Source: Rhodocyclales bacterium (GTDB lineage: Bacteria; Pseudomonadota; Gammaproteobacteria; Burkholderiales; Rhodocyclaceae). Taken from it: a stretch of DNA of 32,000 nucleotides. The notes below the pieces were generated by a model. The model saw only the letters and a list, made by a program, of their open reading frames with translations, did no database searches and was not told where the DNA came from. Made by a program: the position numbers and the translations under genes. Below are positions 13,028 through 31,772 of this stretch, in pieces (the first letter of the stretch is position 1; every line of letters starts with the position of its first letter). The stretch is from contig JACPUD010000082.1 in NCBI GenBank assembly GCA_016192435.1, positions 19,750 through 51,749 of the forward strand, in the 5' to 3' direction.

Positions 13028-13798
13028 ATGAAAGCAGTAATACTCGCCGGAGGACTGGGTACGCGTCTGGCTGAAGAGACCGTGCTCCGACCTAAGCCGA
13101 TGGTCGAGATCGGCGGCAAGCCGATTCTCTGGCACATCATGAAGGGCTATGCGCATTTCGGCATTACCGACTTCGTGATTTGCCTCGGCTACAAGGGTTA
13201 TATGGTCAAGGAGTACTTCGCCAACCTGGCATTGCACAACTCGGACGTGACCATCGACCTGGCGCGTAACCGCGTCGACCTGCATCAGAATCAGTCCGAG
13301 CCCTGGAACATCACTCTGGTCGATACCGGCGAGCGGACACAGACCGGCGGCCGCCTGCGCCAGATACGCCGCTTTGTCGATAACCAGGATTTCTGCATGA
13401 CCTACGGCGATGGCGTGGCTGACGTCGACATCGGTGCCTTGCTGGCCTTTCACCGCGATGAAGCCTGCCTGGCCACGGTCACCGCCGTGCGTCCGCCGGC
13501 ACGTTTCGGTCGTCTCGACCTGGAGGGCCGGCGTGCCCGCGGCTTTCAGGAAAAGCCGCGCGGTGACGGCGACTGGATCAACGGCGGCTTTTTCGTCCTG
13601 TCGCCGGTGGCGCTCGACCCTATCGGCGGCGAAGACACGCTGTGGGAAAAGGAGCCGATGCAACAGCTCGCCGCCACTGGACAGTTGGCCGCCTTCCGCC
13701 ATGACGGCTTCTGGCAACCCATGGATACCCTGCGCGACAAGAATTATCTGGAGGAGCTCTGGGCCAGCGGCAACGCCCCCTGGAAACTTTGGCCATGA
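13028..13798 (+). CDS. rfbF: Glucose-1-phosphate cytidylyltransferase
   Basis: MKAVILAGGLGTRLAEET..PKPMVEIGGKPILWHIMK.Y...G..DF.ICLGYKGY.VKEYF is the classic RfbF/DdhA N-terminus. 256 aa. Confidence 0.9.
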   Translation: MKAVILAGGLGTRLAEETVLRPKPMVEIGGKPILWHIMKGYAHFGITDFVICLGYKGYMVKEYFANLALHNSDVTIDLARNRVDLHQNQSEPWNITLVDTGERTQTGGRLRQIRRFVDNQDFCMTYGDGVADVDIGALLAFHRDEACLATVTAVRPPARFGRLDLEGRRARGFQEKPRGDGDWINGGFFVLSPVALDPIGGEDTLWEKEPMQQLAATGQLAAFRHDGFWQPMDTLRDKNYLEELWASGNAPWKLWP

Positions 13799-14868
13799 AC
13801 CCGGGCTTCTGGAACGGCCGACGGGTCTTCCTGACCGGCCACACCGGCTTTAAGGGCGCCTGGCTGGCGCTGTGGCTGCAGAAAGTTGGCGCTGACGTGA
13901 CGGCGTTTTCGCTGGCCCCACCGACCCGGCCCAACCTGTTCGAGGCGGCGCGGGTGGCGCAGGGCATCAGGTCAATCATCGGCGACATCCGCGACTACGA
14001 AGCGCTCACCACGGCGTTGCGCGATAGCCAGGCCAGCATCGTTTTCCACCTCGCGGCTCAGGCCATAGTGGCCGAAGGCTATCGAGCCGCCCGCGACACT
14101 TTCGCCACCAATCTGACCGGCACGGTCAATCTGCTCGAAGCAATTCGCGGCTGCCCAACCGTCGAGGCCGCGGTGATCGTGACCAGCGACAAGTGCTACA
14201 TGCCCTCACCGGAAGGCAAGCCTCTGCATGAAACCGATCCGCTGGGAGGCAAGGACCCCTACAGCGCCAGCAAGAGCTGTGCGGAAATTGCCACGGCAGC
14301 CTGGCGAGATTCCTTTTTCCACGCAAGCAACTCGCCGCGTATCGCCAGCGCCCGGGCTGGGAATGTGATTGGTGGCGGCGACTGGGCAACGCACCGCCTG
14401 CTGCCCGATCTGGTGCGCGCCTTTGCCGCCGACGAGGCCGTGGTTCTGCGCATGCCCGGAGCGATTCGGCCCTGGCAGCATGTACTCGAAGCCCTCGCGG
14501 GCTATCTGCTGCTGGCACAGCATTTGTGCGCTGAGGACGGGATGCGCTTTGCCCGCAGCTGGAACTTCGGCCCGGTGGAAGCGGATCATCTTGCCGTAGG
14601 CGAGGTGGCCAAGCGCTGTGCCGAAATTTGGGGTGGCGGCGCACGCATCGAAGTCGCCGATGCCAACTTCCAGAAGGAAACCTGGACCTTGCGCCTGGAC
14701 GCCACTCAGGCAAGTGAGGCACTGGGCTGGCACCCGCGCTGGAGCGTTGAGCAGGCTTTGCGGAATACAATTGATTGGTACCAAGCTTGGTATTCCACTC
14801 CGAATGACAGTTCTCGAATTCGTGCCCTGACGCTAACGCAAATCGATGAATACGTGGTCACACCATGA
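13795..14868 (+). CDS. rfbG: CDP-glucose 4,6-dehydratase
   Basis: [24 protein letters not shown] (Rossmann fold), SDKCY, YSASK (YxxxK). The start is either ATG 13795 (ATGA overlap with the rfbF stop) or ATG 13789. Confidence 0.88.
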
Positions 14869-16181
14869 CGCTTGAAGAACAAAGGCAACTGATTCTCATA
14901 CAGGTGCACGACTATGCCGCGCAAAAGGAGCGGCATGCTGCGTTCGTGCCGGGACAAAGTGCCGTGCCCCCTGCCGGACGCGTGCTCGATGCGGAGGCCT
15001 ACGTCGCCATGGTCGATGCCGCGCTCGACGGCTGGCTGACCACCGGGCGCTTCAACGAAGAGTTCGAAAAGCAGATCGCCGCGCGCATCGGCGTCGCCCA
15101 TGCGCTGACGGTCAACTCGGGTTCCTCGGCCAATCTTCTGGCGCTTTCGGCGCTGACTTCGCCGCTGCTCGGCGAGCGCGCACTCAAGGCCGGCGATGAA
15201 GTGATTACCGCGGCCGCCGGCTTTCCGACCACGATCAACCCGATCCTGCAAAACGGCCTGGTGCCGGTCTTCGTCGACTCGTCCCTGCCCACTTACAACC
15301 CGAGTGTCGAAGCCATCGCCGCCGCCATCGGTCCGCGCACCCGCGCCATCATGCTGGCGCACGCCCTCGGCAATCCCTTCGAGGCCGCCGCGCTGCGTGA
15401 GTTGGCGGACCGCCACGGCCTGTGGCTGATCGAAGACTGCTGCGACGCCTTCGGCTCGACGCTGCACGGCCGCAGCGTCGGCAGTTTCGGCCATGTCGGC
15501 ACGCTGAGTTTCTACCCGGCGCACCACATCACCACCGGCGAAGGCGGCGCGGTATTCACCGGCGATCCGATCATCACCCGCGCCGTCGAATCCTTCCGCG
15601 ACTGGGGCCGCGACTGCTACTGCGCCCCCGGCAAGGACAACACCTGTGGCAAGCGTTTCGAATGGCAACTGGGCAACCTGCCCTGCGGCTATGACCACAA
15701 GTACACCTACGCCCACGCCGGCTACAACCTCAAGATCACCGACATGCAGGCCGCGCTCGGCGTCGCCCAACTGGCCCGCCTCGACGAATTCATCGCCGCG
15801 CGCAAGCGCAACTTCGCCTACCTGACCGCGCGCCTGAAGGCCTGCGAGGAATTCCTGATCCTGCCCGAGGCTACGCCCGACAGCGATCCTTCCTGGTTCG
15901 GCTTCCTGCTGACCCTGCGCGAGAACGCGCCCTGCGACCGGGTGAACCTGCTTCGCTATCTCGACCAGCACAAGATCGGCACGCGCTTGCTGTTCGCCGG
16001 CAACGTCACGCGCCAGCCCTACATGCAGGGCCGCAGCTACCGCGTCGCCGGAACACTGGCCAACGCCGATATCATCACCGAGCGCAGTTTCTGGATTGGC
16101 GTCTATCCGGGACTCAGCCGCGAAATGCTCGATTTCGCTGCAGACAAAATCAGCGAATTCCTCGGCGTCGGATTCGCATAG
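14865..16181 (+). CDS. rfbH: CDP-6-deoxy-L-threo-D-glycero-4-hexulose-3-dehydrase (E1; RfbH/DdhC), PMP and [2Fe-2S] enzyme
   Basis: It has the DegT/DnrJ/EryC1 fold. [14 protein letters not shown] carries His in place of the usual Schiff-base Lys. CCDAF...(57 residues)...[11 protein letters not shown] reproduces the E1 C-X57-C-X1-C-X7-C cluster motif when I count it. ATGA overlap with rfbG. Confidence 0.9.
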
Positions 16182-17212
16182 TGGCCAGCGTCCCCGTCGC
16201 CGACCTTGACCACATTCTGGCGCATACCGAAACGCTGTGGCGCAACTTGGCCAATGCGCGTCTGTTCATTACCGGCGGGACGGGATTCTTCGGCATCTGG
16301 CTGCTGGAAGCCATCGCCGCCGCCAACGACAGGCTCAATGTCGGCGTGGGTGCCACGGTACTGAGTCGGAACCCGGCGAGTTTCCTCGCGCGCATGCCGC
16401 ATCTGGCGAGCCGGTCCGAATTCGATTGGCTGACCGGACATCCGGCCAGCTTTCGTTTCCCGCAACAACAGCACGACTTTCTGCTGCACCTGGCCACCGC
16501 CACCAGCGCCCACGACGGACAGACCGATCCGGTCGAAATGCTGCAGACCAAGCTGACCGGGATTCGCCATGTCATCGACTATGCCCGGTACGCAGGCATT
16601 TCCCGCATGCTGGTGACCAGTTCCGGTGCAGTTTACGGGCCGCAACCGGCCGGTCTCAGCCATGTTCCGGAAACCTACGCTGGCGCACCCGACCCGACGC
16701 AAGCTGCCTCTGCCTATGGCCAAGGCAAGCGACTGGTGGAGCAGATCTGTGCCGCGACGCCCGAGATAGAGTGCGTGTTCGCCCGCTGCTTTTCCTTTGT
16801 CGGCCCACATCTGCCGCTGGATGCCCGTTTTGCCGCCGGTAACTTCCTGCACGATGCGCTGGCCGGCGGCCCCATAACAGTCGGCGGTGACGGCACGCCG
16901 TTGCGCAGTTATCTATACGCCGGCGACCTGATCCCTTGGCTGCTGCAGCTGCTGGTCAAAGGCCAGGCGCGGCGCGCCTACAACGTCGGCAGCGACCAGG
17001 CTGTAAGCATCGCGGAACTGGCCCATGCCGTCGCCAAGGCAGCAGGCGGTTGCGAGGTAGTTGTCAGGAAGGTGCCCGACGGAGGTCCTGTACAGCGCTA
17101 CGTACCTTCGATCGCCCGCGCCCGCGAGGAACTGGGACTGGACGTATGGACGCCGCTACCGGACGCACTGAACCGCACGCTTGACTGGGCGCGCCGGCAT
17201 GCTGCCGGTTAA
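16181..17212 (+). CDS. NAD-dependent epimerase/dehydratase-family SDR (extended SDR; CDP-sugar epimerase or 4-reductase candidate)
   Basis: LFITGGTGFFG (GxxGxxG) and YGQGK (YxxxK), 343 aa. The GTG start overlaps the rfbH TAG stop by 1 nt. Confidence 0.7.
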   Translation: MASVPVADLDHILAHTETLWRNLANARLFITGGTGFFGIWLLEAIAAANDRLNVGVGATVLSRNPASFLARMPHLASRSEFDWLTGHPASFRFPQQQHDFLLHLATATSAHDGQTDPVEMLQTKLTGIRHVIDYARYAGISRMLVTSSGAVYGPQPAGLSHVPETYAGAPDPTQAASAYGQGKRLVEQICAATPEIECVFARCFSFVGPHLPLDARFAAGNFLHDALAGGPITVGGDGTPLRSYLYAGDLIPWLLQLLVKGQARRAYNVGSDQAVSIAELAHAVAKAAGGCEVVVRKVPDGGPVQRYVPSIARAREELGLDVWTPLPDALNRTLDWARRHAAG

Positions 17213-17248
17213 AATGGCCGCACCCCGTCACAGAGGCCGACCAGCCAG

Positions 17249-19069
17249 GTGCAGACCATGAACGCCGCGCAACAAATCGCCGACTGGCTGGTCAGCCAGG
17301 GAATCGAGCAGGTATTTGCCGTGACCGGGGGCGGTTCCATGTTTCTCAATCATGCGCTGGCCAGCCACCCCGGCCTGCACTGCACCTTCATGCACCACGA
17401 ACAGGCCTGCGCCATGGCAGCCGAGGGATACGCCCGCATTTCCGGAAAACCGGCGGTAGTCAACGTCACCACCGGGCCCGGCGGAATCAATTCACTTAAC
17501 GGCGTCTACGGTGCCTTTACGGATTCCGTTCCGATGCTGGTGCTCTCGGGTCAGGTCAAGCGTGAAACCTGCCTGGACTTCGTTGCGGTGCCCGGCTTGC
17601 GCCAACTTGGCGACCAGGAGGGACCGGCCATCCACATGGCGCGCCACGTCACGAAATTCGCCGAAATAGCCCGCAGTGCGGAAGTACTCGCCTCACTGCT
17701 GCCGCAAGCGTTCGCCGCAGCCTGCCGGGGACGCCCGGGGCCGGCGTGGATCGATATCCCGCTCGATGTGCAGTCGGCGAAAACCCGACTCGACTTCATC
17801 GAGCTGCCCTCCGCCGAAACGCAGGATGAAGATCTCGCGACGCCCTGCGCCCATATCCTGGATCGACTGGAGCACGCGCATCGCCCGGTCATTCTCGCCG
17901 GCAGCGGCGTTCGCATCGGCGGCGCCGCCACGGCCCTGCTTGCCTTCGCCGAAGCGCACGGCATTCCGGTGGCCACGGCATGGAGCCACGATCTGATTGC
18001 CAGCGACCACCCCTTGTTTGCAGGCCGTCCGGGCACCATCGGCACGCGTGGCGGGAACTTCTGCCTGCAGGCGGCCGACGTCGTGCTGGTCGTCGGCTCG
18101 CGACTCAACATCCGCCAGGTCAGCTACAACTGGAAAAGCTTTGCCAAGAATGCATTTGTCGCTCAGGTCGACATCGACCCTGCAGAGCTGGCCAAACCAT
18201 TCGTCCGACCGCAACTTGCCGTGCGCGCCGATGCAAGGAATTTTCTTGCCGAGCTCACGGAACAGGCTAGTCAGCGGACACTTCCAAACTACTCGCCCTG
18301 GGCGCGGTGGTGTCGTGCCATCCGGGCCCGCTATCCGGTACTGCAGGCTGCGCAACGGCAGTCGCCCCAGCTCAATCCCTATTTCATCGTCGACCACATC
18401 TTCGGCCAGTTGCGCGACAGCGACGTCATCGTTTGCGGCAATGCCGCCGCCTGCATCGTGCCGTTCCAGACCGAGCGCTTGCGGGCGGGGCAACGCATGT
18501 TCAGCAATTCCGGTGCCGCCTCGATGGGTCACGACCTTCCCGCCGCGCTGGGCGCAGCCATGGCCGACCGCACACGACGGGTGATCTGCTTCGCCGGCGA
18601 CGGCAGCCTGCAGATGAACGTGCAGGAACTGCAGACCCTGAAGACCAGCGGCGCCAATGTAGTCGTCCTGGTTCTCGCCAACAACGGCTACCTGTCGATC
18701 CGCCAGACCCACGAGAACTTTTTTGGCAGTATCGTCGGCGCCACTCCCGAATCCGGCGTCGACCTCCCCGACTACTCCGCGCTGGCCGCTGCCTATGGCA
18801 TTTGCGCGACGCGACTGTCCTCTCATGGCGAGTTACCGAGCCTGAATGAATTCCTGGCACATGACGGCCCGGCGCTGGTGCATATCGACGTCGACCCGGC
18901 GCAGAACTTCGAGCCGCGACTGAAATCGCGGATCGCCGATGACGGAAGCTTTCTGACGCCGGAACTGGATGACATGTTTCCATTCCTGCCGGCAGAGGAA
19001 TTGGCCGCGGTGCGTGCCGAAGCCGCCGCAATCAGGGCCGTCGTCCCGCACCTGGAACCCGCGTCGTGA
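17249..19069 (+). CDS. Thiamine-diphosphate-dependent enzyme of the acetolactate-synthase large-subunit family (YerE-like branched-sugar C2-transferase candidate)
   Basis: N-terminal Pyr domain (VFAVTGGGSMFLNHAL, HEQACAMAAEGYAR, NVTTGPGGINSL). C-terminal ThDP motif GDGSLQMNVQELQT...VVLVLANNGY. The start is GTG 17249 or ATG 17258. Confidence 0.8.
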   Translation: MQTMNAAQQIADWLVSQGIEQVFAVTGGGSMFLNHALASHPGLHCTFMHHEQACAMAAEGYARISGKPAVVNVTTGPGGINSLNGVYGAFTDSVPMLVLSGQVKRETCLDFVAVPGLRQLGDQEGPAIHMARHVTKFAEIARSAEVLASLLPQAFAAACRGRPGPAWIDIPLDVQSAKTRLDFIELPSAETQDEDLATPCAHILDRLEHAHRPVILAGSGVRIGGAATALLAFAEAHGIPVATAWSHDLIASDHPLFAGRPGTIGTRGGNFCLQAADVVLVVGSRLNIRQVSYNWKSFAKNAFVAQVDIDPAELAKPFVRPQLAVRADARNFLAELTEQASQRTLPNYSPWARWCRAIRARYPVLQAAQRQSPQLNPYFIVDHIFGQLRDSDVIVCGNAAACIVPFQTERLRAGQRMFSNSGAASMGHDLPAALGAAMADRTRRVICFAGDGSLQMNVQELQTLKTSGANVVVLVLANNGYLSIRQTHENFFGSIVGATPESGVDLPDYSALAAAYGICATRLSSHGELPSLNEFLAHDGPALVHIDVDPAQNFEPRLKSRIADDGSFLTPELDDMFPFLPAEELAAVRAEAAAIRAVVPHLEPAS

Positions 19070-19824
19070 GCGCCCTGTTCGACATCTCCGGCCAAGTTGC
19101 CCTGGTGACCGGCGGACGACGCGGGCTCGGGCGTGCCATGGCGCTCGGAATGGCCGATGCCGGCGCAAGGGTCGCCGTGGTCGCGGCAAGCTCCGAAGCC
19201 TCGGATCTGCAGCGGGAACTTGCCGGTCGCGGCGTCGACTTCCTCTACATTCAGGCGGACCTGACCAGGCGCAATGAGCGTGAGGGACTGGTAAGCCGGG
19301 TTGTCGAGCATTTCGGCCGCCTCGACATCCTGGTCAACAATGCCGGTCTGCAGCAGAAGAGGTCGGCGGTCGACTACGCCACGGACGCCTGGGACGTCGA
19401 TATCGAACTTCTGCTCACTGCCGTACTCGACCTCAGCCAGCAGGCGGCGCGCCACATGATTCCCCAAGGGTACGGAAAGATCGTGCAGATTGCCTCGATC
19501 AGCAGCTTTCAGGGGGCACGCAACATCATCGGCTACTCGACAGCCAAGCATGGACTTGTCGGCTTGACCAAATGCCTCGCAAATGAATGGGCCGCGCTCG
19601 GGATCAATGTCAACGCCATCGCTCCCGGGATATTCGAAACCGACATGGCGGCACAAACCCTTGCTGATCCGATCAAGACGGCTGAACTCAAGGGACGCGT
19701 TCCCGCCGGACGCTTCGGCGCACCGGAGGATATCGTCGGCCCGCTGCTGTTCCTCGTCAGCAATGCCAGCCGGCATGTCCACGGGCACGTCCTGCTGGTC
19801 GACGGCGGCTGGATGGGACGCTAG
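19066..19824 (+). CDS. Classical SDR oxidoreductase (FabG/KduD-like; YerF-like reductase candidate)
   Basis: VALVTGGRRGLGRA, NNAG, S...YSTAKHG (YxxxK), 252 aa. The GTG start overlaps the upstream stop (GTGA). Confidence 0.8.
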   Translation: MSALFDISGQVALVTGGRRGLGRAMALGMADAGARVAVVAASSEASDLQRELAGRGVDFLYIQADLTRRNEREGLVSRVVEHFGRLDILVNNAGLQQKRSAVDYATDAWDVDIELLLTAVLDLSQQAARHMIPQGYGKIVQIASISSFQGARNIIGYSTAKHGLVGLTKCLANEWAALGINVNAIAPGIFETDMAAQTLADPIKTAELKGRVPAGRFGAPEDIVGPLLFLVSNASRHVHGHVLLVDGGWMGR

Positions 19825-19847
19825 ACGCGTCGCGAAGGGAAATTGAC

Positions 19848-21820: not shown

Positions 21821-21865
21821 CTGCCCGCACCTGCTTACCTACCACCAAGTTCAACCCACGCCATC

Positions 21866-22954: not shown

Positions 22955-22982
22955 CGCTCTCGAATTGGGCAATCGGTCCTTG

Positions 22983-23366
22983 ATGAACGAACAAACCCGT
23001 TTCCTGCTGACGGGCGCCTACAACACCGCCTTTGGCTACGGGACATTTGTGGTGCTTTACCTGTACCTGCAGGATGTGCTGCACTACCTTGTGATCGCGA
23101 CGCTTGCTCATCTTATCGCCGTCGTAAATTCATTCCTGACCCAACGCAGCCTGGTATTCAGGGACGCCAGCCCCATAGTTCCTGCTTTCCTTCGCTTCAA
23201 CCTCGCCACAGCCGCGTCACTGATCCTTGGTCTCGCGGGCATGGCACTGCTGGTCGACGGTGCGGGTGTGGCCCCGCTGATCAGTCAGGCCATCGTGACC
23301 GTGATTTCGGTCATCGTTATGTATCTGACCCACAGAAACTACACGTTTCGCCGTCCAGGCCAATGA
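22983..23366 (+). CDS. GtrA-family small membrane protein (4 TM; polyprenyl-P-sugar translocation family)
   Basis: RFLLTGAYNTAFGYGTFVVL...LIAVVNSFLTQRSLVFR...THRNYTFR is the GtrA-like pattern, 127 aa from ATG 22983. The ORF-track start at 22887 overlaps the NeuB-like gene and adds non-hydrophobic residues. Confidence 0.7.
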   Translation: MNEQTRFLLTGAYNTAFGYGTFVVLYLYLQDVLHYLVIATLAHLIAVVNSFLTQRSLVFRDASPIVPAFLRFNLATAASLILGLAGMALLVDGAGVAPLISQAIVTVISVIVMYLTHRNYTFRRPGQ

Positions 23367-23563
23367 CCAACTGCCGCGCAGCTTTCGTTCCGGATGCGCC
23401 CATCATGCCTGCCGCCGGGTTGCGAACAATCTCGCTGATCGCCGGTCCGCCTCGCAAGCCAGTGGCGGTGATCAAGGTCCTCACGTGCTGCGCCGAACCC
23501 AGTCTTGGAATCCTTCCCCGGATAGACCATTCCAGGCTTGCCGACTACTTCAATCAGCCATGA
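23363..23563 (+). CDS. Candidate 66-aa coupling ORF between gtrA-like and the large transferase gene (unverified)
   Basis: Its start ATG overlaps the gtrA stop (ATGA at 23363-23366). Its stop overlaps ATG 23560 of the next gene (ATGA at 23560-23563). I counted about 69% G/C at third positions. No recognisable domain and no obvious RBS. Confidence 0.3.
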   Translation: MTNCRAAFVPDAPIMPAAGLRTISLIAGPPRKPVAVIKVLTCCAEPSLGILPRIDHSRLADYFNQP

Positions 23564-26500
23564 AGGCGCTGCCCCGACTTGGCACGATTCTGCCGCGCCT
23601 GTTCTATTTGCTGCTCTCCCTGTGGGCGGTACTCCTTCTGTTGCGGGGATCGCCATGGATAGGCGACACCGAGCGGGTACCGGACTTCAAGGGTCCCTTC
23701 ATGCAAGCCAGCCCGCGCCAGTATGGCGTGCTGCCGACGCGGATGAGTCGTGGCGACAAACTCGATATCGCCATGGAATTCCGCATCGAGCAGGAACTGA
23801 TGGAGCGCATGTCCGACCAAGGTCGACAATATGCCGGGCTGTTTCAGACGGCCAGCGGCGAACAGGGAGTACGCATAGAGATGGGGCTTGCCCCGACTCA
23901 ATACAACAACTGGGGAATCTCCATTGCCGGTCAGCACTTCGATCTGGGACGCGTCCCCGCTACCAACCGATGGCACAAACTGCGGCTTGTTGCAGCGAAT
24001 CGGTCGGCCACGCTGACCATCGATGGCATTCGACTCATCCGTCTCGACAATTACCCGGACAAGGTCCGGATCGACGTGGTACGCGCCGGTTATGGTTATT
24101 CGCCCGACCGGCTTTTCCCCGGCCAGATACGCGATTTTTCGGTCAGCCTGACGCCCTACGATGCGCTGGCCGACCAGGCCCAGAAAGTGGTTGTGAGCAT
24201 ACTGGCAGCCGTGCTCCTGCTCTGGCTGATCGCAGCCGTTCGCATCGGCCTCAAAAATGGCCGAAACCCGTTCGACTCCGTTCCCGTCAGGTGGCTGTCG
24301 GCGTTGGCATACCTGGGATGTTTCTTCTGGCTCAAGGGCCACTACACGACGGAAACTGGCCAGGAATTGCTGACCGACATTGCACTTGCTGCCGTGCTGC
24401 TGGTAAGCATCCAGGCAGCGCTGGATTTCCCGCCACGACAACTCATGCGCCAATTCATCGTCAGCTTTGCGATCGGATTGAATTACTGCACATTCGCCGT
24501 GCTGATGGCCGGCGCAAGCTATCTGCGGGGACGGGCAGACGGCACGGAGACCGGGCTCACGTATGACGAGATCGGCGTGCTGCACCAATCAAACGTCGCC
24601 GAAACCCTGGAATTTTTCCTGAGCAGCTTTTCCCTTTCCGAAAAGGCGGTAATTCTGCTCTTTCCGATTCTGCCGTCGCTCGCTCTGTACCTCCTCGCCC
24701 GCATCCGCCTTCCCCGCTGGAGTACAACCGGTTCTGCTGTGGTTGGAGTTTCGGGACTAATTGCCAGCCCCTTCCTGCTCTCGACGGACAGCGGCATCGC
24801 TGCGACGATTTATGGCGGCTGGCAAAGTTACTCCGACGTCGAGCGCAACTTCTCCAACTACCGCCAATTGCGATCGCAAGCGTCGACGCTTGAAGCTACA
24901 AAGCGCGAAACCGGCGAAACCTATGTGCTGGTGATCGGCGAGTCCGCCAACCGCGATCACTTTTCTGCCTACGGCTATTTTCGACCTACGACACCCTGGC
25001 TGAATCAGCAGCGCAAGAATCCGAACGACATTTTTTTCGAGAATGCCTATGCCAGCTATGTACACACGGTTCCGGCACTCATGCAGGCGCTTACGGCAGC
25101 CAACCAGTACACCCCGGGAAGCAGTCTTTCAAGCCCGACACTGATCGAAGTCTTCCGCGCCGCCGGCTTTCACACCATCTGGCTCAGCGAGCAAACCATG
25201 AGTTGGGCCGACACGCCGCTGCACACCTTGGCGGCCGAGGCATCGCAGATAATTCAAGTGAGATCCCCGGGAAAAATCCTGCCGAAGTTTCGCGAGACTC
25301 TGCAATTCCTGGACCGGACGCGGAACAATTTGGTGATCGTGCACATGATGGGATCGCATGCCGACTACCGCAACCGCTATCCGCCCGACTATGCATCCAA
25401 TTTTTCACGCGCGCCAGAAGACCTTGGTGATCACGCCCAGGCGAGCGAGTTTCTCGACAGGTTTCTCGACCCCTATGACCGGTCCATTCACTATACCGAC
25501 CACCAACTGGCCGAAATGGATGCCGCACTCAGCGCCGCGCAGTTCGACAAATATGCTTTCATCTTTGTCGCTGATCACGGCGAAGATGTTTTTGGCCAGC
25601 GCTTCCACAACGCAGCGAACTTCAGTTTCCCGATGACACGCATCCCCCTGTTCATGCGCTTTTCTGCTGACTGGGTCGAGCACAATCGCACGAAGCACAG
25701 CCAGTTGCAGCAGCGCAGGAGCAGCATTTTCACGCTGGATCTACTTTTCGACACGATGGTCGGCCTGGCCGGCATCCGGACGCGGGCGTCCTCCGCGGGA
25801 TTCGATCTCGGTCACTCGCGCTACATGTTGAACGAGGAAATTGCCCTTACGATGCGGCCACCCCCGGATTCACTCTCCGGGGTTTACACAAATGTTGTCG
25901 AACGATCGATTCGCGATGACCCGCAGCGGATTGCCCAAGACAATCTGCGTTTTCTCAATCGGGAATTTCCGGGGCGGTTTCTTGCCAACTGGGCCGACAG
26001 CCTGGCGCGCGCCAGCGAAGCCGACGCTCTTGGATTTGCCGGCCTCGAGGTAAATGTGGGCGTACCCTCGATGCACATCGGTCATTACCCGGAAATCGTT
26101 CATGCCCGAACGCTGGAGCAATATCTTGCGTTGCCCGTGGTGCGCAACAAGCACAAGCTGTGGCTCGACCTCAAGCTTGAATCCGGGCGCGCCGTGAACG
26201 AATCCCTGGCGGCCATGGAATCACTCGACAGGCGATACAAGCTGAAGGCTCACGCAATCATAGAATCCCCTGAGCACGGCCTCGCTGCATTCGCCGCGCG
26301 AGGCTGGCACACCAGCTATTACTTTATTCCCGAAAGGTGGCCTGGCTGCCTTGACGACGAGAAATCACGCCGCCAGTGCGCCAGAGACCTGGTGCTTGTC
26401 GTAAAGGAACAGAAACTTGGCGCCGTAAGCTTCGATGCACGCTACTACTCCTTCATCGACCGCTATGTCGCGCCTCTGCTACCTCCGACCGTGGCGTTCC

Positions 26501-26679
26501 ACACGTTTGGCGCCGACCTGCCATCGATTTTCGCGCCGGATTTCCGCGAAAAGCTTCTGGCACGCAGCGAAGTGCGGGATCGACGAATCAAGACAATCTT
26601 GCTGGAGGGATCGCAAACATTCCATGAGGGAAGGAAAGTTTTCCGGACGCCCGGCGATAACGGCGCCAGGGCTTTTTGA
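23560..26679 (+). CDS. Multi-domain inner-membrane protein: N-terminal anchor, LamG/ConA-like jelly-roll domain, ~6 TM helices, phosphoethanolamine-transferase (sulfatase/alkaline-phosphatase superfamily, EptA/OpgE-like) domain and a ~250-aa extra C-terminal domain
   Basis: The transferase motifs align to EptA/MCR-1 landmarks: VLVIGESANRDH (metal Glu), YVHTVPALM (nucleophile Thr, codon 25066-25068), VHMMGSHADYRNRYP, YDRSIHYTD, FVADHGE. Hydrophobic segments lie at about 24181-24780. The start was chosen at ATG 23560 (MKALPRLGTILPRLFYLLLSLWAVLLLL). The alternative is GTG 23485, as in the ORF track. Confidence 0.75.
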   Translation: MKALPRLGTILPRLFYLLLSLWAVLLLLRGSPWIGDTERVPDFKGPFMQASPRQYGVLPTRMSRGDKLDIAMEFRIEQELMERMSDQGRQYAGLFQTASGEQGVRIEMGLAPTQYNNWGISIAGQHFDLGRVPATNRWHKLRLVAANRSATLTIDGIRLIRLDNYPDKVRIDVVRAGYGYSPDRLFPGQIRDFSVSLTPYDALADQAQKVVVSILAAVLLLWLIAAVRIGLKNGRNPFDSVPVRWLSALAYLGCFFWLKGHYTTETGQELLTDIALAAVLLVSIQAALDFPPRQLMRQFIVSFAIGLNYCTFAVLMAGASYLRGRADGTETGLTYDEIGVLHQSNVAETLEFFLSSFSLSEKAVILLFPILPSLALYLLARIRLPRWSTTGSAVVGVSGLIASPFLLSTDSGIAATIYGGWQSYSDVERNFSNYRQLRSQASTLEATKRETGETYVLVIGESANRDHFSAYGYFRPTTPWLNQQRKNPNDIFFENAYASYVHTVPALMQALTAANQYTPGSSLSSPTLIEVFRAAGFHTIWLSEQTMSWADTPLHTLAAEASQIIQVRSPGKILPKFRETLQFLDRTRNNLVIVHMMGSHADYRNRYPPDYASNFSRAPEDLGDHAQASEFLDRFLDPYDRSIHYTDHQLAEMDAALSAAQFDKYAFIFVADHGEDVFGQRFHNAANFSFPMTRIPLFMRFSADWVEHNRTKHSQLQQRRSSIFTLDLLFDTMVGLAGIRTRASSAGFDLGHSRYMLNEEIALTMRPPPDSLSGVYTNVVERSIRDDPQRIAQDNLRFLNREFPGRFLANWADSLARASEADALGFAGLEVNVGVPSMHIGHYPEIVHARTLEQYLALPVVRNKHKLWLDLKLESGRAVNESLAAMESLDRRYKLKAHAIIESPEHGLAAFAARGWHTSYYFIPERWPGCLDDEKSRRQCARDLVLVVKEQKLGAVSFDARYYSFIDRYVAPLLPPTVAFHTFGADLPSIFAPDFREKLLARSEVRDRRIKTILLEGSQTFHEGRKVFRTPGDNGARAF

Positions 26680-28043
26680 TTCACACCTTTTGCGTCCCAC
26701 CTCAGATGACCACTGCCCGCTCTCAACCGCATTCAGACAGTCAAGACCCGTCCTTGCATGCACGCACATTCCTCGGCATGTTGCTTGCCGTCGGCGTGCT
26801 GACTATAGCGAACCTGCTTTTTCACGGTATGCACTTCGGCATGGACCTGTATCGCGGGCGCTGGTGCGAGGACGCCTATCTGTTCTTTCCCGGCCCGCTG
26901 TTTCATGCCGAAGACAGGTTCATGGACTATTTCAACATGCAGCATTTCATGCCCGAGTACGGGCAGACATCGGCATTGCCGCCCAGCCTGATCCTGCTCT
27001 ATGGCATCGCCAGCCTGATCACCCGCGCGACTTCGCCGGGCGTTTCGATTGTGATTTTCTCCCTGTTTCAGTTCGGTCTGTTCGCCTACTCAATCGCCAG
27101 GCTGATGGGCAGTCTGCCTGGCGCAGTGTCTTGGAGCATGACGATACGGCTTGCATTTGCCCTGGCCCTGTGTCTGATTTCATATCCCGTCATTTTTGCC
27201 ATCGACCGCGGCAATTTTGCGCTGACGGTATGCAGCATGATTTCCCTCGGAATCGCGGCTCACCTTCGCGGCGAGCGCTGGCAAGCCGCCGCGTGGATCG
27301 GCATCGCAGCCGCACTTCGCATCACGCCGCTGGTATTCGCCGTGGCATACCTCGGCAAAAAGGACTTCCGCTACCTGCTCACCGCGGTTGTCGTGGCCAT
27401 GAGTGCAACAGGAATTGCCATCCATCCGGCCTCCCTTATATTCGAGGGCTATTCGTTGCAGACCTGGATCGACGGATTCGACGGTCACAGCTTCATGTAC
27501 ACGACCTGGCCCAACGGACTCGGCTGGAGTTCGTCGCTTTACAATCTGGTGAGGTTCATCAGGTACCTGGACGGCATCCCGCTTGACACGATCCTTGAGT
27601 CCGCCTATCGGGCGGAGCGACTCTATTCGATGGTCTGCGCCGGGCTGTTGGGCCTGCTGGCATGGAAGCTTCACCGCACCAACGCCGTAACCGGCTTCAC
27701 TTTGCTTTCCCTGGCCTTTGTTGCGCTGCCCCATGTCACTGGCGACTACTATCTGGCCACCTTGATCGCACCTCTCGTAATGATCGCCGGCCAGAGCCGA
27801 ATCGACTACCCGTCGCTAATGCTGCTGATCCTGCTGCTGGTGCCAAAGGACTATTTCTATTACTACTTCCACATCCACAAGTTCAGTGACATCAAGGTCC
27901 ACGACTTCGTCGAATATGTCGACCTGCTCATCATCGGATACAAACCGTCGAGCATACAGTCACTCGTCATCAATCCGATATTGTTGATCTGGCTGGGCGT
28001 GCGGATGTACCTCAAGCCTCCCCCAGAAGCCGCCCAGGCCTAG
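26676..28043 (+). CDS. Polytopic membrane protein, DUF2029/GT87-like (GT-C fold glycosyltransferase candidate)
   Basis: About 10 or more hydrophobic helices. The first loop carries acidic/aromatic motifs (MDLYRG...EDRFMDYF...ALPPSLILLYG) resembling the D..Y...YPP pattern of polyprenyl-P-sugar-dependent GT87/DUF2029 proteins. The TTG start overlaps the upstream TGA (TTGA); ATG 26706 is the alternative. Confidence 0.5.
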   Translation: MIHTFCVPPQMTTARSQPHSDSQDPSLHARTFLGMLLAVGVLTIANLLFHGMHFGMDLYRGRWCEDAYLFFPGPLFHAEDRFMDYFNMQHFMPEYGQTSALPPSLILLYGIASLITRATSPGVSIVIFSLFQFGLFAYSIARLMGSLPGAVSWSMTIRLAFALALCLISYPVIFAIDRGNFALTVCSMISLGIAAHLRGERWQAAAWIGIAAALRITPLVFAVAYLGKKDFRYLLTAVVVAMSATGIAIHPASLIFEGYSLQTWIDGFDGHSFMYTTWPNGLGWSSSLYNLVRFIRYLDGIPLDTILESAYRAERLYSMVCAGLLGLLAWKLHRTNAVTGFTLLSLAFVALPHVTGDYYLATLIAPLVMIAGQSRIDYPSLMLLILLLVPKDYFYYYFHIHKFSDIKVHDFVEYVDLLIIGYKPSSIQSLVINPILLIWLGVRMYLKPPPEAAQA

Positions 28044-28053
28044 AAAGCGCAGC

Positions 28054-30279
28054 ATGAAGTCAAGCTCCGACCTTACGTCAGCAAGCGGGCCGCACGAGAC
28101 AGTGGGGACCCATGCCGCTATCGGCGCGCAGCATCTCGAAGGTGGCCGCCTTGAAGAGGCGGAAGCCAGCTACCACAAGGCACTGGAGATCGATCCGGAC
28201 TTTGCCGAAGCCCATTTCAAGCTGGGCAATATCGCGATGAAGCGCCGGTCGCCGGCAGCCGCGGAAGCTGCCTATCGCCGTGCCGTCAGCGCCGACTCCT
28301 GCCACTTCAAGGCCTTCTACAACCTCGGCAATCTGCTCCGGCTACAAGCGCGCCTCGGGGAAGCGGAGACCTGCTATCGGCGCGTGATCGCCATCGAACC
28401 CGGCTACAGCGATGCACACGTGAACCTTGGCGTCACTCTCCAGGACCAGGGACGCCATGCCGAGGCAGAGGCCAGCTACCGTGCTGCCTTGCAACTCGAG
28501 CCGAACGACGCCGATGCGCTCAACAACCTGAGCCTGTCGCTCAAGGACCAGGAACGGCACGGCGAGGCGGAAGTGTGCTGCCGTCGGGCACTGCAACTGG
28601 CGCCGCGCAATGCGCTGGCCTGGAACAACCTCGGCATCATCCTGAAGGAACTGGGGCGTCTCGCCGAAGCCGAAGCAAGCTATCGCAAGGCACTGGAACT
28701 GGCACCGAACTATGCCGAAGCATTGAACAATCTCGGCGTCACGCTCAAAGCGCAGGGACGACTCGCCGAATCCGAAGCAGCGCTTCGCCGGGCGATCGAG
28801 ATCAGGCCGGCCTACGCCAATGCCTGCAACAATCTCGGTGCCACCCTGTCGCTGCAGGGACGGCATGCCGAAGCGGAAGTGCTTTATCGACAGGTACTGG
28901 AGTTTGACGCCAATAACGCGCAGACCTGGAACAGCCTGGGAGGCGCACTGGCCGGCCAGGGGCGCCCGGCAGAGGCGATTGCCGGCTTTCGCCGAGCCCT
29001 TGAAATCGATCCGGATCTGCTTGCCGCGCATAGCAATCTGCTGTTCACCCTGAACTACAGCGGCAGGCACGACAGTTCCGACCTGGTCGAGGAAGCGCGC
29101 CGGTATGGCCGGGCCGTCAGCCGCAGGGTGACATCCAGATATACGGCCTGGATATCTCCGGCAGCACCCCGGCTCCTTCGCATCGGGCTGGTATCGGCCG
29201 ATCTCAGAAATCATCCGGTCGGATTCTTTCTCGAAGGTTTGCTGGCACATATCGACACGTCACGCATCGAGCTGACCGCCTATCCGACCGGGCGCACGGA
29301 AGATGCGGTGACGGTGCGCATGCGCAAGCATTTCGCCGCCTGGAAACCGATCGCCGATCTGAGCGACGAAGCCGCAGCGCAACTGATCCACTCCGATGGA
29401 ATCCACGTCCTGATCGACCTTGCCGGACACACCACCGACAACCGGCTACCCGTGTTCGGCTGGAAACCCGCGCCCGTGCAAGCCACCTGGCTGGGCTACT
29501 TCGCCACCACGGGCGTCGCCGAAATCGATTACCTCCTAGCTACCGGCACCGAGATTCCGGACACACATCGCGGCCGGTTCACCGAATCGATCTGGTACCT
29601 ACCCGACACCAGGCTGTGTTTCAGCGTACCTCAGTCCAGCATTCCCGTTACCGGACTGCCCGCGCTGCGCAGGGGCTGGATAAACTTCGGCTGCTTCCAG
29701 AATCTGTCGAAGGTGGGCGATGAGGTGCTCGCCACATGGGCCCAAATTCTCGCGGCCCTGCCGGATGCACGACTGCGCTTCCAATGTCCGCAGCTCGCCA
29801 CGCCAGGCTCGCGGCAACAGCTGGCTGCGCGCCTGCAGCAACGCGGCATAACTCCGGGGCGAGTGACGATGCTCGGCGCGGTCGACCGGGAATCCTATCT
29901 GGCGGCGCATGCCGAGGTGGATGTGATTCTTGACACCTTTCCCTACCCGGGCGGCACGACAACCTGCGAGGCCTTGTGGATGGGCGTGCCGACCCTGACC
30001 CTGGCCGGCGAAAGCATGCTTGAACGACAGGGCGCCAGCTTTCTGACCATCGCCGGGCTGACGGACTGGATTGCATCCAGCCGGGCCGAGTACGTCGAAA
30101 ATGCACTTGCCGTCGCCAGGGACCTGGAGTCCTTGGCCCATTTGCGCTCGATCCTGCGCCAACAAGTGCTGGCTTCCCCACTGTTCGATGCGCCGCGCTT
30201 TGCCCGCAACCTGGAGCAGGCGCTGTGGCAGATGTGGCAAGGGTATTTGCCAAACCATCGCGCCGAGAACGGCACTTGA
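28054..30279 (+). CDS. TPR-repeat protein fused to a SPINDLY/OGT-like (COG3914, GT41-like) glycosyltransferase domain
   Basis: About 9 tandem 34-aa TPR units (AEASYRKALELAPNYAEALNNLGVTLKAQGRL and similar). The C-terminal half is LRIGLVSADLRNHPVGFF...DLAGHT...WLGYFATTG...DTFPYPGGTTTCEALWMGVPTLTL, as in bacterial SPY-family transferases. Confidence 0.78.
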   Translation: MKSSSDLTSASGPHETVGTHAAIGAQHLEGGRLEEAEASYHKALEIDPDFAEAHFKLGNIAMKRRSPAAAEAAYRRAVSADSCHFKAFYNLGNLLRLQARLGEAETCYRRVIAIEPGYSDAHVNLGVTLQDQGRHAEAEASYRAALQLEPNDADALNNLSLSLKDQERHGEAEVCCRRALQLAPRNALAWNNLGIILKELGRLAEAEASYRKALELAPNYAEALNNLGVTLKAQGRLAESEAALRRAIEIRPAYANACNNLGATLSLQGRHAEAEVLYRQVLEFDANNAQTWNSLGGALAGQGRPAEAIAGFRRALEIDPDLLAAHSNLLFTLNYSGRHDSSDLVEEARRYGRAVSRRVTSRYTAWISPAAPRLLRIGLVSADLRNHPVGFFLEGLLAHIDTSRIELTAYPTGRTEDAVTVRMRKHFAAWKPIADLSDEAAAQLIHSDGIHVLIDLAGHTTDNRLPVFGWKPAPVQATWLGYFATTGVAEIDYLLATGTEIPDTHRGRFTESIWYLPDTRLCFSVPQSSIPVTGLPALRRGWINFGCFQNLSKVGDEVLATWAQILAALPDARLRFQCPQLATPGSRQQLAARLQQRGITPGRVTMLGAVDRESYLAAHAEVDVILDTFPYPGGTTTCEALWMGVPTLTLAGESMLERQGASFLTIAGLTDWIASSRAEYVENALAVARDLESLAHLRSILRQQVLASPLFDAPRFARNLEQALWQMWQGYLPNHRAENGT

Positions 30280-31772
30280 ATACGGCGACCCGCCATGACT
30301 GGACTCGTCACCCGATCGACGGCCTGACGGTCCTTGGCTTCGCCTACATCGCCTTACCCAACCTGATCTTCATGTTCGGCTGGTTGCGCTGGCCGGTCGC
30401 GCTGGTACTATGCGCCGCCCTGCTGCACCTGCTGTTTCGAGCTCTGGCGGTGCGACCGATTGCCTGGCACTGGAAATACTCTCGCGCCACCACGCTTGTG
30501 CTCCTCGCTAGCGCAGTCGCCTGGGCAGCATTTGGCGGCGGCAGCCACTTCATGTATGCCAACCCCGACTGGGATGTTCGCGATGCCGTGCTCGGCGATC
30601 TGATATTCGCCGATTGGCCGGTGCACTATCTGTCGGCTGACGGCGCCCGGCTCGTCCTCCGTTCGGCGATCGGCTATTTTCTGCCGCCGGCGATGTTTGG
30701 TCGCATTTTCGGCACTGCGCATGTCGATATCGCGGTCTACCTCTGGACCGCGACGGGAGTGCTGATCTTTCTCGCACTACTGCCTTTGCCACGGCATGCC
30801 GGCTGGCGCCTGGCATTGGGCCTGTGGCTTGCAGTGTTTTTCAGCGGCATGGATTTCGTCGGTCAATTGATCGCCACCGAGTCGCTGCCGCAATTTCCGC
30901 TCAGGCTCGAGTGGTGGGTTCCGTTGAGCTACCCGTCGCTGGCCAACCAGCTTCTTTGGGCGCCCAATCACAGCCTGCCGCTATGGATGGGCACCCTGCT
31001 CGTCTTGCGCCATCTGCACAGCCCGGATTTCCTGCGCATGGCTGCGGCATTGCTGCCGCTGACGCTGATATGGACGCCGTTCGCCGCGCTGGGGCTGGCG
31101 CCCTTCTGTCTGCTGGGCGCCGTCAAGGCCGTCCGCCAGTCCGGCTGGCGCTGCATTCCGTACGATTCGGTGGTTTCGGCTGCGATTTTCTCCGCACCCC
31201 TGATCATGTTCCTGCTGCTGGATGCCGGACGGATACATGCCGGCATCGCCACCAATGTAGCGGACGGAGTACCCAGTTACACGCTGCAGGCGGCGTCCCT
31301 GCATTCCTATCTATTGTTCATCGCCTGCGAATTCCTCTTCCTGGCCCTGGTACTGGCTCCGCATGTTCGACAATCGCGGGACGTCTTTGGCCTTGCGCTA
31401 CTGATTCTTGTCGGTCTGCCCCTGCTCCGCTTCGGTCCGTCCAATGACGTGCTGCTGCGACTGTCCGCGCCGCCACTGATCGTTTTGCTGGTGGTCTGCC
31501 TGCAGACCCTGCTCGATCCGGGCCGCCAGCAGACCCGCTCGACACTGCTGCTAGCCTGGCTGTTCCTGGCCATCGGAGCCCATACCGCCTTCAACGAGTT
31601 CTGGCGTGCCGCCACCTACACTCGAGCGCCAGCGGACTACCGCCACACCCTGGCTGAGAAGCAGGACGGGAGGCCTGCGGCGCACTATGCGGCACAGATC
31701 GGCACATCGGCCGCAGGCATATGGCTCAAGCCCCTGGCCAGGCCCGCCAGCGACACACAACGAAATCCATAG
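30276..31772 (+). CDS. Polytopic integral membrane protein of unknown family (about 12 TM; possible glycan polymerase/ligase/GT-C-like)
   Basis: Strongly hydrophobic throughout, with loop motifs NPDWDVRDAVLGDL and LLWAPNHSLPLWMG. The start is proposed at TTG 30276, overlapping the upstream TGA (TTGA). The ORF-track ATG 30225 would overlap the TPR gene by 55 nt. Confidence 0.55.
   Translation: MNTATRHDWTRHPIDGLTVLGFAYIALPNLIFMFGWLRWPVALVLCAALLHLLFRALAVRPIAWHWKYSRATTLVLLASAVAWAAFGGGSHFMYANPDWDVRDAVLGDLIFADWPVHYLSADGARLVLRSAIGYFLPPAMFGRIFGTAHVDIAVYLWTATGVLIFLALLPLPRHAGWRLALGLWLAVFFSGMDFVGQLIATESLPQFPLRLEWWVPLSYPSLANQLLWAPNHSLPLWMGTLLVLRHLHSPDFLRMAAALLPLTLIWTPFAALGLAPFCLLGAVKAVRQSGWRCIPYDSVVSAAIFSAPLIMFLLLDAGRIHAGIATNVADGVPSYTLQAASLHSYLLFIACEFLFLALVLAPHVRQSRDVFGLALLILVGLPLLRFGPSNDVLLRLSAPPLIVLLVVCLQTLLDPGRQQTRSTLLLAWLFLAIGAHTAFNEFWRAATYTRAPADYRHTLAEKQDGRPAAHYAAQIGTSAAGIWLKPLARPASDTQRNP

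Follow-up and report, generated by a model that had tools for sequence, protein, structure and literature searches.

A mosaic surface-glycan locus of a Sulfuritalea-like bacterium, with a proposed route from a NeuB-family synthase and a YerE/JanthE-like enzyme to a long-branched dideoxy sugar

Introduction

Branched higher sugars, yersiniose, erwiniose and caryophyllose among them, occur as rare determinants of surface antigens in bacteria, and the thiamine-dependent enzymes that form their branches are wanted as biocatalysts for tertiary alcohols. Here we describe a run of glycan genes at positions 13028–31772 of a 32,000-nucleotide (nt) stretch of DNA from a Rhodocyclales bacterium (GenBank assembly GCA_016192435.1, contig JACPUD010000082.1, positions 19,750 to 51,749), referred to below as the window. 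The branched-sugar systems nearest to it are the clusters for yersiniose (YerE/YerF), erwiniose (ErwE/F/I/J), caryophyllose (MMAR_2331-2333) and gastriose (MyGE/MygI/MygF) (Steitz et al. 2022, PMC9306805). The published scheme for acyl-branched sugars combines ddh genes with a YerE-like enzyme, a reductase and an aldolase; a 4-hydroxy-2-keto acid made by the aldolase is decarboxylated by the thiamine enzyme and added to C4 of cytidine diphosphate (CDP)-4-keto-3,6-dideoxyglucose (PMC9306805; PMC12247030). One YerE-like carboligase that accepts ketones, JanthE (8rph) from Janthinobacterium sp. HH01, has unknown physiological substrates (PMC12188165). On the delivery side, the nearest systems are GtrA/GtrB/GtrC of Shigella and Salmonella, ArnC/ArnT and the pentofuranose systems (Kelly et al. 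2024, PMC11127046), with three-component periplasmic glycosylation as the precedent for the delivery module discussed here (PMC11127046).

The locus, which comes from a Sulfuritalea-like sulfur bacterium, is a mosaic of genes for a surface glycan. Among named genomes, Sulfuritalea and Sulfurisoma metagenome-assembled genomes (MAGs) come closest, and the same or nearly the same contigs occur in four metagenome samples. On balance, we favor the view that this is a modular locus in which a long-branched CDP-3,6-dideoxy sugar is made, passed to a lipid carrier and used by periplasmic transferases. No characterized cluster was found to be collinear with it, in agreement with an earlier note on this DNA, which did not recognize it as a described O-antigen or Gtr locus.

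Results

Genes for a CDP-dideoxy sugar and its branching

Gene labels (G1 to G15) run in + strand order, and all positions are window coordinates. Families were called with Pfam and with NCBIfam/TIGR equivalog models at the bit cutoffs given; this annotation bore out the enzyme inventory of the earlier note. The genes assigned to sugar synthesis and branching are as follows.

13028–13798, + strand: G1, glucose-1-phosphate cytidylyltransferase (RfbF/DdhA); TIGR02623, 439 bits (cutoff 300)
13795–14868, + strand: G2, CDP-glucose 4,6-dehydratase (RfbG/DdhB); TIGR02622, 426 bits (cutoff 278)
14865–16181, + strand: G3, RfbH/E1-type CDP-6-deoxy-4-hexulose 3-dehydrase; NF011936, 702 bits (cutoff 423)
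16181–17212, + strand: G4, nucleoside-diphosphate-sugar oxidoreductase of the extended short-chain dehydrogenase/reductase (SDR) type; Pfam Epimerase, 103 bits, no equivalog
17249–19069, + strand: G5, thiamine-diphosphate (TPP) carboligase, putatively of the YerE/JanthE kind; three TPP domains
21866–22954, + strand: G9, NeuB-family synthase condensing phosphoenolpyruvate (PEP); Pfam NeuB, 125 bits, no NeuB or PseI equivalog

G1 to G3 all score above their equivalog cutoffs and constitute the CDP-4-keto-3,6-dideoxyglucose gene set of YerE-type clusters. The G3 sequence carries a C-x-C-x7-C motif and reads AHH where the lysine for pyridoxal phosphate would be; the motif and the His-for-Lys replacement are what we take to be features of E1. 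G5 is flanked by two SDRs, G4 and G6. The best solved relatives of G4 are UDP-xylose synthases (6e-27), and by its position and its conservation (a homologue is kept in 41 of the 54 well-flanked loci defined below) G4 is a candidate branch-carbonyl reductase, equivalent to YerF.

The best solved relative of G5 is JanthE (8rph, 6.6e-98), with ~37% identity over residues 5–585. G5 scores 332 bits against JanthE versus 229 bits against acetohydroxyacid synthase (AHAS; 1.6e-66 for the E. coli enzyme), and it lies below all AHAS equivalog cutoffs. G9, for its part, falls far short of the equivalog cutoffs of PseI (110 bits, cutoff 340) and NeuB (107 bits, cutoff 400); its solved relative is 3g8r (1.4e-59).

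The NeuB-like synthase is linked to the thiamine enzyme in several phyla

A search with the G9 family confirmed at least 592 species-level genome loci, of which the best 80 were analyzed. In 54 of these 80, at least 6 kb flank the G9 homologue on each side, and linkage was counted when a homologue lay within 10 kb of the G9-family gene. Seven related loci with Pfam annotation served as annotated comparison contexts.

The linkage of the two genes is close to complete. A G5 homologue lies near the G9-family gene in 53 of the 54 well-flanked loci, which span five phyla; over all 80 it is present in 71, on the same strand in 66 of the 71. The CDP-sugar genes follow the same pattern, with rfbF and rfbH each found in 43 of 54. 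Homologues at least 65% identical to G9 occur in Betaproteobacteria, Bacteroidota, Planctomycetota, Actinomycetota and Myxococcota. Between phyla, the NeuB-like protein keeps 65–70% identity as against ~35–65% for the partner thiamine enzyme, and this higher conservation suggests that the NeuB-like protein has a fixed, common substrate.

Other neighbors recur as well. An FkbM methyltransferase, absent from the window, is found in ~45 of the 80 loci, and class I methyltransferases are also among the recurrent families. A phosphoglycolate-phosphatase-like hydrolase of the haloacid dehalogenase (HAD) superfamily occurs in ~38 of the 80, usually adjoining the NeuB-like gene (for example at 11214–11861 in locus L090, 2745–3407 in L051 and 11099–11920 in L006, besides ~35 other loci), which suggests a small phosphorylated substrate or product for the G9 homologues. 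Neither an aldolase nor a CMP-sugar (CMP-ulosonate) synthetase was found in the window, in the seven annotated contexts or among the recurrent neighbor families, and the precursor amino-sugar genes of nonulosonic-acid pathways were found neither in the window nor in the annotated contexts.

NeuB-family synthases are PEP-dependent, and their products are 3-deoxy-4-hydroxy-2-keto acids. Because the linkage holds in 53 of 54 loci and no CMP-sugar synthetase or aldolase recurs, we read G9 as the supplier of a longer keto-acid donor for the thiamine enzyme. Genes or candidate genes for all elements of the published scheme are present save the aldolase and an E3 reductase, and a NeuB-family synthase is the near-obligate partner; G9 is therefore proposed as the source of the donor. 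On the same grounds, C2 branching and PEP condensation, which had been listed as separate features of the locus, are probably one.

A different role for G9 has to be weighed here. G9 might condense PEP with an aldehyde that the thiamine enzyme has already installed on the CDP-sugar, or make an independent ulosonic acid that is incorporated separately. Such a role would fit the placement of G9 in the NeuB family by Pfam and the position of twelve loci beside fliC and fliD, NeuB-type enzymes being typical of flagellin glycosylation islands; moreover, gene order does not reveal which step comes first. We nevertheless regard it as quite unlikely, since no CMP-ulosonate synthetase recurs in the loci, G9 misses both the NeuB and the PseI equivalog cutoffs, and its near-obligate link is to the thiamine enzyme and the CDP-dideoxyhexose genes. 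In addition, the phosphoglycolate-phosphatase-like HAD enzyme next to G9 homologues suggests a small phosphorylated metabolite, and the characterized relatives of the thiamine enzyme take preformed 4-hydroxy-2-keto acids (PMC9306805).

The literature searched contains no link between NeuB, a thiamine enzyme, a branched sugar and CDP; its coverage did not extend to the 2024 surveys of YerE-like clusters (Krug et al., Lanza et al.), so that a prior description is possible.

A tailoring cassette, module exchange and several outlets

Two accessory genes stand between G5 and the delivery genes.

19066–19824, + strand: G6, classical SDR, accessory tailoring; adh_short, 181 bits; KduD model, 264 bits (below its cutoff of 339)
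19848–20885, + strand: G7, radical SAM enzyme with a SPASM/Twitch domain, accessory tailoring; Radical_SAM, 56 bits; SPASM, 57 bits

The C-terminal part of G7 is BtrN-like, matching the auxiliary-cluster domain of 4m7s (7e-13). G6 and G7 co-occur at useful identity only in L008 and L012, and the closest relatives show how readily this part is exchanged. L009, which is a Sulfuritalea MAG, matches the window collinearly, at 87% nucleotide identity, in two stretches, one running from aprB/sat through G5 and the other from G8 to the far end of the window; in the same position as G6 and G7 (window 19039–20882), it has a single FkbM methyltransferase (L009 7815–9005). L008 is collinear from sat to the end of the GtrA gene (23352). 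Beyond that point, and in the opposite orientation, come two GT87 proteins, a family 2 glycosyltransferase (GT2), methyltransferases, a radical SAM enzyme and an SDR fusion. Comparison of synteny thus speaks against a single fixed unit: close relatives exchange cassettes exactly at the module borders.

More distant loci place the sugar genes in other settings. In Zoogloea, Thauera and Pseudomonas guariconensis, they stand together with a GT2 protein of 1200–1500 amino acids (aa) directly upstream of fliC-flaG-fliD-fliS-fliT. Twelve such flagellin-adjacent loci have the large GT2 gene and no G8. In L088 (14721–18804), and also in L014–L023, L025 and L056, the sugar module consists of rfbFGH, the thiamine enzyme and the NeuB-like gene. 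This arrangement suggests that flagellin is glycosylated with the same sugar in these bacteria. On another metagenomic contig, the sugar genes lie inside a Wzx-type polysaccharide locus. Given these multiple settings (L008, L009, flagellin, Wzx-type), the sugar module is therefore portable and has several outlets, and the delivery part seen in the window is one option among interchangeable ones.

Delivery genes

20882–21820, + strand: G8, GT2 polyprenyl-phosphate glycosyltransferase (GtrB/ArnC/PgfS-like); Glycos_transf_2 PF00535, 91 bits
22983–23366, + strand: G10, small membrane protein of the GtrA family (127 aa), putative flippase of the lipid-linked sugar; PF04138, 65 bits (cutoff 26)
26778–28043, + strand: G13, membrane glycosyltransferase of family GT87 (GT-C type); PF09594, 66 bits (cutoff 25)
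30276–31772 (start 30225 or 30276), + strand: G15, polytopic membrane protein of an unnamed family with a GT-C-like fold; structure model

The three parts of a Gtr-type system are present, namely a GT2 enzyme (G8), a GtrA protein (G10) and a GT-C transferase (G13). G8 is similar over its full length to PgfS (177 bits) and ArnC (94 bits), in both cases under the equivalog cutoff, and two hydrophobic helices are visible at the C-terminal end of its sequence. For G10, an earlier start at 22887 was discarded, as gene callers give a protein of 127 aa and a start at ~22983. A sequence search of the Protein Data Bank (PDB) gave no match for G13. G8 orthologues (50–84% identical) travel with the sugar genes, in 31 of the 54 well-flanked loci, often followed by GtrA and GT87 or other membrane proteins. 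The idea that the locus makes a sugar, loads it onto a lipid, flips it and attaches it gains new support from this association.

G15 has no Pfam or NCBIfam match. Its family comprises 176 homologues, all annotated as hypothetical, from Sulfuritalea, Accumulibacter and similar bacteria. The structure model of G15 (pLDDT 86.9, pTM 0.91) gives a Foldseek probability above 0.4 only for GT-C enzymes, i.e. AftA, PglB, yeast OST and Pmt4 (E 0.03–1.2), and it does not resemble transporters. No Pfam match to Wzx, Wzy, Wzz, an ABC transporter or a WbaP/WecA-type enzyme was obtained among the 15 cluster products, consistent with the earlier statement that wzx/wzy/wzz, wzm/wzt and WbaP/WecA-type genes are missing.

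An EptC-like fusion and a GT41 protein

23560–26679, + strand: G12, membrane protein of 1039 aa with an EptC/CptA-like domain; Sulfatase, 128 bits
28054–30279, + strand: G14, protein with tetratricopeptide repeats (TPR) and a GT41 (SPINDLY/OGT-like) domain; Glyco_transf_41 PF13844, 160 bits (cutoff 25), many TPR families

G12 is a rare fusion, for which only 8 full-length homologues were found. A transmembrane (TM) helix is followed by a lectin-like beta-sandwich (residues 36–198), a TM bundle, an EptC/CptA-like phosphoethanolamine-transferase domain (~450–760) and an alpha/beta domain (~780–1020). The score with the CptA subfamily model, 172 bits, is below the cutoff of 404. Foldseek with the whole model (pLDDT 79.7), which is dominated by the sulfatase domain, finds E. 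coli EptC (6a82; 3e-18, TMt 0.76) and also full-length EptA of N. meningitidis (5fgn). The N-terminal sandwich is weakly lectin-like (ConA/LamG; Laminin_G_3, E 0.0034), and the C-terminal alpha/beta domain, confidently modeled, had no match by PDB profile search or permissive Pfam. Residues E461, T503, H595, H600, D672 and H673 are invariant in the alignment and are presumably the catalytic positions.

G14 is closest to SPINDLY (7y4i, 1.2e-77) and is presumably cytoplasmic, no signal peptide being visible in its sequence. Pairs resembling G14 and G15 recur downstream of sugar genes in L057, L061 and L068.

These last genes raise the possibility that two separate systems have been juxtaposed, with G1 to G10 making and lipid-loading a branched sugar, and G12 to G15 being unrelated envelope- or protein-modifying enzymes that use other donors. 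The collinearity of L008 stops past GtrA, where a different, oppositely oriented module follows; L009 is the only locus in which G12 accompanies the sugar module, G14 and G15 are found with it in just a few loci of the Rhodocyclales type, and the G14 family glycosylates proteins in the cytoplasm. Against such a division, a GtrB/GtrA pair needs a GT-C partner, and GT87 follows in the window, L005, L008 and L009. Furthermore, homologues of G14 and G15 again lie downstream of the thiamine-enzyme, NeuB-like and GT2 genes in the three loci named above, and the G15 model resembles GT-C enzymes. We therefore consider two unrelated systems unlikely, and prefer a single modular locus in which a sugar module feeds an exchangeable delivery part.

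Gene junctions and gaps

From 13028 to 31772, all large open reading frames (ORFs) are on the + strand, ~14 genes in all. Two features complete the description of this run.

23367–23559, no strand: spacer with a doubtful 66-codon ORF, module boundary; 22/21/24 substitutions by codon position, L008 collinearity ending at 23352
31792–32000, − strand: 3' end of a second TPR-GT41 gene, convergent, which closes the + strand run; the frame-2 translation ends in LFDTKRFVRALEDIYLSIHKGRLTPEAARRD, followed by the stop codon at 31792–31794

On identical contigs, this second TPR/GT41 gene is called at 638–643 aa, so two TPR-GT41 genes, at 28054–30279 (+) and 31792–32000 (−), face each other over the end of the cluster.

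The earlier note held that every gene of the run lies on the + strand, that gaps are 0–45 nt or genes overlap, and that this points to one long translationally coupled unit. The ORF map agrees on the strand, and the listed junction strings are all in place (ATGA at 13795, 14865, 20882, 23363 and 23560; GTGA at 19066; TAGTG at 16181; TTGA at 26676 and 30276). The claim on the gaps has to be revised. After revision of starts and ORFs, the gaps from G1 to G15 are, in order, −4, −4, −1, 36, −4, 23, −4, 45, 28, 193, 98, 10 and −4 nt.

The two larger gaps arise as follows. First, the 66-codon ORF at 23363–23563, which underlies two of the ATGA overlaps, is treated as non-coding. Compared with L009 (87% identical), it has 22/21/24 mismatches at codon positions 1/2/3, a flat distribution as against ~20/10/55 in the neighboring genes, and it has no family match in Pfam/NCBIfam searches; the result is a gap of 193 nt. 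Some gene callers do report this ORF. Second, TTG at 26676 was rejected as the start of the GT87 gene. Since gene callers give 421 aa and a 59%-identical orthologue has 419 aa, ATG at 26778 is the likely start, and the gap is therefore 98 nt. With these gaps, and with the cassette exchange at 19039–20882 and after 23352, the case for one translationally coupled unit is weakened.

The 193-nt spacer could hold an internal promoter. A promoter and terminator scan of 12500–32000 predicted none in the intergenic gaps, with counts no higher than in shuffled controls, so that the scan has no power on operon structure. Rfam gave no match anywhere in the window, and a repeat search of the three longer spacers returned only short matches, likely due to chance. 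Short gene overlaps are ordinary in bacterial operons and by themselves do not exceed expectation. Foreign origin of the 20–28 kb region was also considered and set aside: G+C is lower there, yet G+C at third codon positions is uniform (0.69–0.83) across the window genes, giving no sign of recent foreign origin, and the dip is due to amino-acid composition.

The divergent spacer and sat-aprBA

Upstream of G1, the window turns to sulfur metabolism.

12843–13027, no strand: divergent spacer of 185 nt; three-way alignment with L008 and L009
11628–12842, − strand: sat (ATP sulfurylase), divergent neighbor; Pfam ATP-sulfurylase 296 bits, PUA_2 175 bits, APS-reductase_C 94 bits
11084–11557, − strand: aprB, beyond sat; Pfam
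9034–11061, − strand: aprA, beyond sat; Pfam

Pfam bears out sat, aprB and aprA as the divergent neighbors, and the proposed spacer length of 185 nt is exact, with the sat ATG at 12842 (−) and the rfbF ATG at 13028. The proposed AT-rich box is also real: ~12913–12952 has 63% A+T, the spacer having a G+C content of 50% and the flanking genes one of ~62%. The further claim, that the spacer is a control region common to the glycan genes and sat-aprBA, is unsupported. Among the best 80 of the 592 loci, only L008 and L009 have sat next to the cluster, and the conserved part is the sat-proximal 115 nt. Both the AT-rich patch and the strong ribosome-binding site of sat (GAGGAGG) fall within this part (12843–12957). 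It is nearly invariant in L008 and L009, while the genes differ by ~12%; its conservation is probably that of a sat leader or promoter under constraint. Toward rfbF, the spacer varies apart from a second conserved block of 23 nt (12969–12991). A sigma-54 promoter in this block was rejected, as the GG–GC spacing, judged by eye, is 8 nt instead of 10, and no match to the sigma-70 consensus was found in the 185-nt spacer. The pattern would fit an independent, less constrained glycan promoter, with no evidence for shared control, and the link to sat-aprBA is probably incidental.

Taken as a whole, the competing picture is that of an 18.7-kb translationally coupled operon, co-regulated with sat-aprBA through the shared spacer, and a complete system for a yersiniose-type C2-branched sugar in which PEP condensation is separate. 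All genes are indeed co-directional, seven junctions overlap by 1–4 nt, no intergenic terminator is predicted, and the divergent sat arrangement is kept in L008 and L009 with the spacer partly conserved. However, without the doubtful ORF and the TTG start, gaps of 193 and 98 nt appear, relatives lose collinearity at 23352 and swap 19039–20882, and sat adjacency is confined to 2 of 80 loci. The linkage of the NeuB-like synthase to the thiamine enzyme argues against a plain C2 branch, and an E3 reductase and a HAD phosphatase are absent. We regard this picture as distinctly improbable.

Farther out, Qmo/Hdr-like genes on the + strand encode an FAD protein (2852–4138), a FlpD-containing protein (4141–6384), a ferredoxin-like protein (6407–7042) and a CCG-domain protein (7057–7956). 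With a CxxCxxCC protein on the − strand (8039–8938), this Qmo/Hdr-like set (2852–8938) converges on aprBA-sat.

Discussion

Family assignments, the order of the genes, their conserved linkage and the exchange of cassettes are observations; for the modular locus that we favor, we infer every substrate, the sequence of reactions, the nucleotide donor that G8 uses, the acceptor, and transcription in one or more units. RfbF, RfbG and the E1-type RfbH would produce CDP-4-keto-3,6-dideoxy-D-glucose, with an electron-transfer partner encoded elsewhere. G9 would condense PEP with an aldehyde or an aldose phosphate to a 3-deoxy-4-hydroxy-2-keto acid, which G5 would decarboxylate, adding the acyl unit to C4 of the CDP-sugar, and G4 would reduce the new carbonyl. 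The resulting 3,6-dideoxyhexose, activated by CDP, would bear a branch that is hydroxylated and longer than C2, as in the routes to erwiniose, caryophyllose and gastriose, save that a synthase of the NeuB type stands in for the pyruvate aldolase. G6 and G7 may then modify the branch or the ring, for example by oxidation-reduction, epimerization or deoxygenation. G8 would move the sugar onto polyprenyl phosphate, G10 (GtrA) would assist flipping of the lipid-linked sugar, and G13, possibly also G15, would attach it to a periplasmic acceptor, probably lipopolysaccharide or another envelope glycan. G12 may decorate the same acceptor, e.g. with phosphoethanolamine.

Several points weigh against this proposal. 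The RfbH-type E1 dehydrase requires an E3 reductase partner; no E3 (DdhD/AscD) iron-sulfur flavoprotein reductase was found among the window genes, in the annotated contexts or among the recurrent neighbor families. The gene may lie elsewhere in the genome, beyond the region searched. The HAD phosphatase, likewise, was not found in the window, and with these two absences, the idea that the window holds a complete, self-contained system does not stand. Structure 5ahk, which we take to be PpYerE, matches G5 at 4e-57, no closer than plant AHAS; the term YerE-like for G5 therefore rests on JanthE and gene context. On the delivery side, we know of no GtrB-type enzyme that uses a CDP-sugar, the structural matches of G15 are weak (E 0.03 or worse), G12 to G15 may serve other donors, and the twelve flagellin loci without G8 make the lipid route only one of several outlets. 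Finally, the 80 loci analyzed are the closest of the 592 and no random sample, and the chemistry proposed for this locus type is read from sequence.

With these points in mind, we put forward a broader idea, more tentatively than the reading of the locus itself. The NeuB-family synthase and the YerE/JanthE-like enzyme may constitute a widespread pathway (at least 592 species, several phyla) to higher-carbon, long-branched 3,6-dideoxy sugars, which would be used either directly on flagellin, as in the Zoogloea-type loci, or through a GtrB/GtrA/GT-C route fed by a CDP-sugar, as in the window. If so, we know of no earlier three-component system that carries a sugar of this type. The near-obligate pairing with a conserved NeuB-like synthase offers a concrete, testable proposal for the missing donor of JanthE-type enzymes. 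It predicts that hundreds of bacteria from the environment and from wastewater carry glycans of one class, to which flagellin glycans of Zoogloea and Thauera would belong. Moreover, three-component periplasmic glycosylation would extend to a wider range of chemistry if the donor that the GtrB-like G8 takes is truly a branched sugar linked to CDP.

How, then, does the locus compare with known systems? Like the clusters for acyl-branched sugars, it has the CDP-4-keto-3,6-dideoxyglucose genes, an adjoining AHAS-like thiamine carboligase and a candidate NAD(P)H oxidoreductase, and the logic proposed here, in which a keto-acid donor is decarboxylated and added to C4, is the same. Unlike them, the window has no pyruvate aldolase or E3, and the conserved partner is a PEP-dependent synthase of the NeuB family; G5 is nearer to JanthE (~37% identity) than to PpYerE; and the product is proposed to enter a polyprenyl-phosphate route instead of being handed to a Leloir transferase of an O-antigen or lipooligosaccharide cluster.

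With Gtr-type systems, the locus shares a GT2 polyprenyl-phosphate glycosyltransferase, a GtrA-family protein and one or more GT-C-type transferases encoded together. It differs in its proposed donor, a CDP-linked branched dideoxy sugar from adjacent genes instead of UDP-glucose, UDP-Ara4FN or phosphoribosyl pyrophosphate, and in having two candidate GT-C proteins (GT87 and the unnamed family), an EptC-like fusion and a GT41 protein, with no O-antigen backbone genes nearby. With NeuB/PseI/LegI and the synthase-phosphatase pairs for Neu5Ac-9-P and KDN-9-P, G9 shares the NeuB Pfam domain, and about half of the related loci have a HAD phosphatase gene next to that of the synthase. In contrast to NeuB/PseI/LegI, G9 is far under the equivalog cutoffs, has no CMP-synthetase beside it and is linked to a thiamine enzyme, not to amino-sugar precursor genes. 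G12 resembles EptC/CptA and EptA in its central TM bundle and sulfatase-fold domain, and departs from them in its extra N-terminal lectin-like beta-sandwich and its C-terminal alpha/beta domain of ~250 residues.

Both halves of the locus are thus of known kinds, the one a YerE-type branched-sugar cluster and the other a Gtr-type three-component system. The new elements are the substitution of a NeuB-family synthase for the aldolase and the breadth of this substitution across phyla, together with the proposed feeding of a CDP-linked branched sugar into a Gtr-like route, the unnamed GT-C-like family of G15 and the rare EptC-like fusion of G12.

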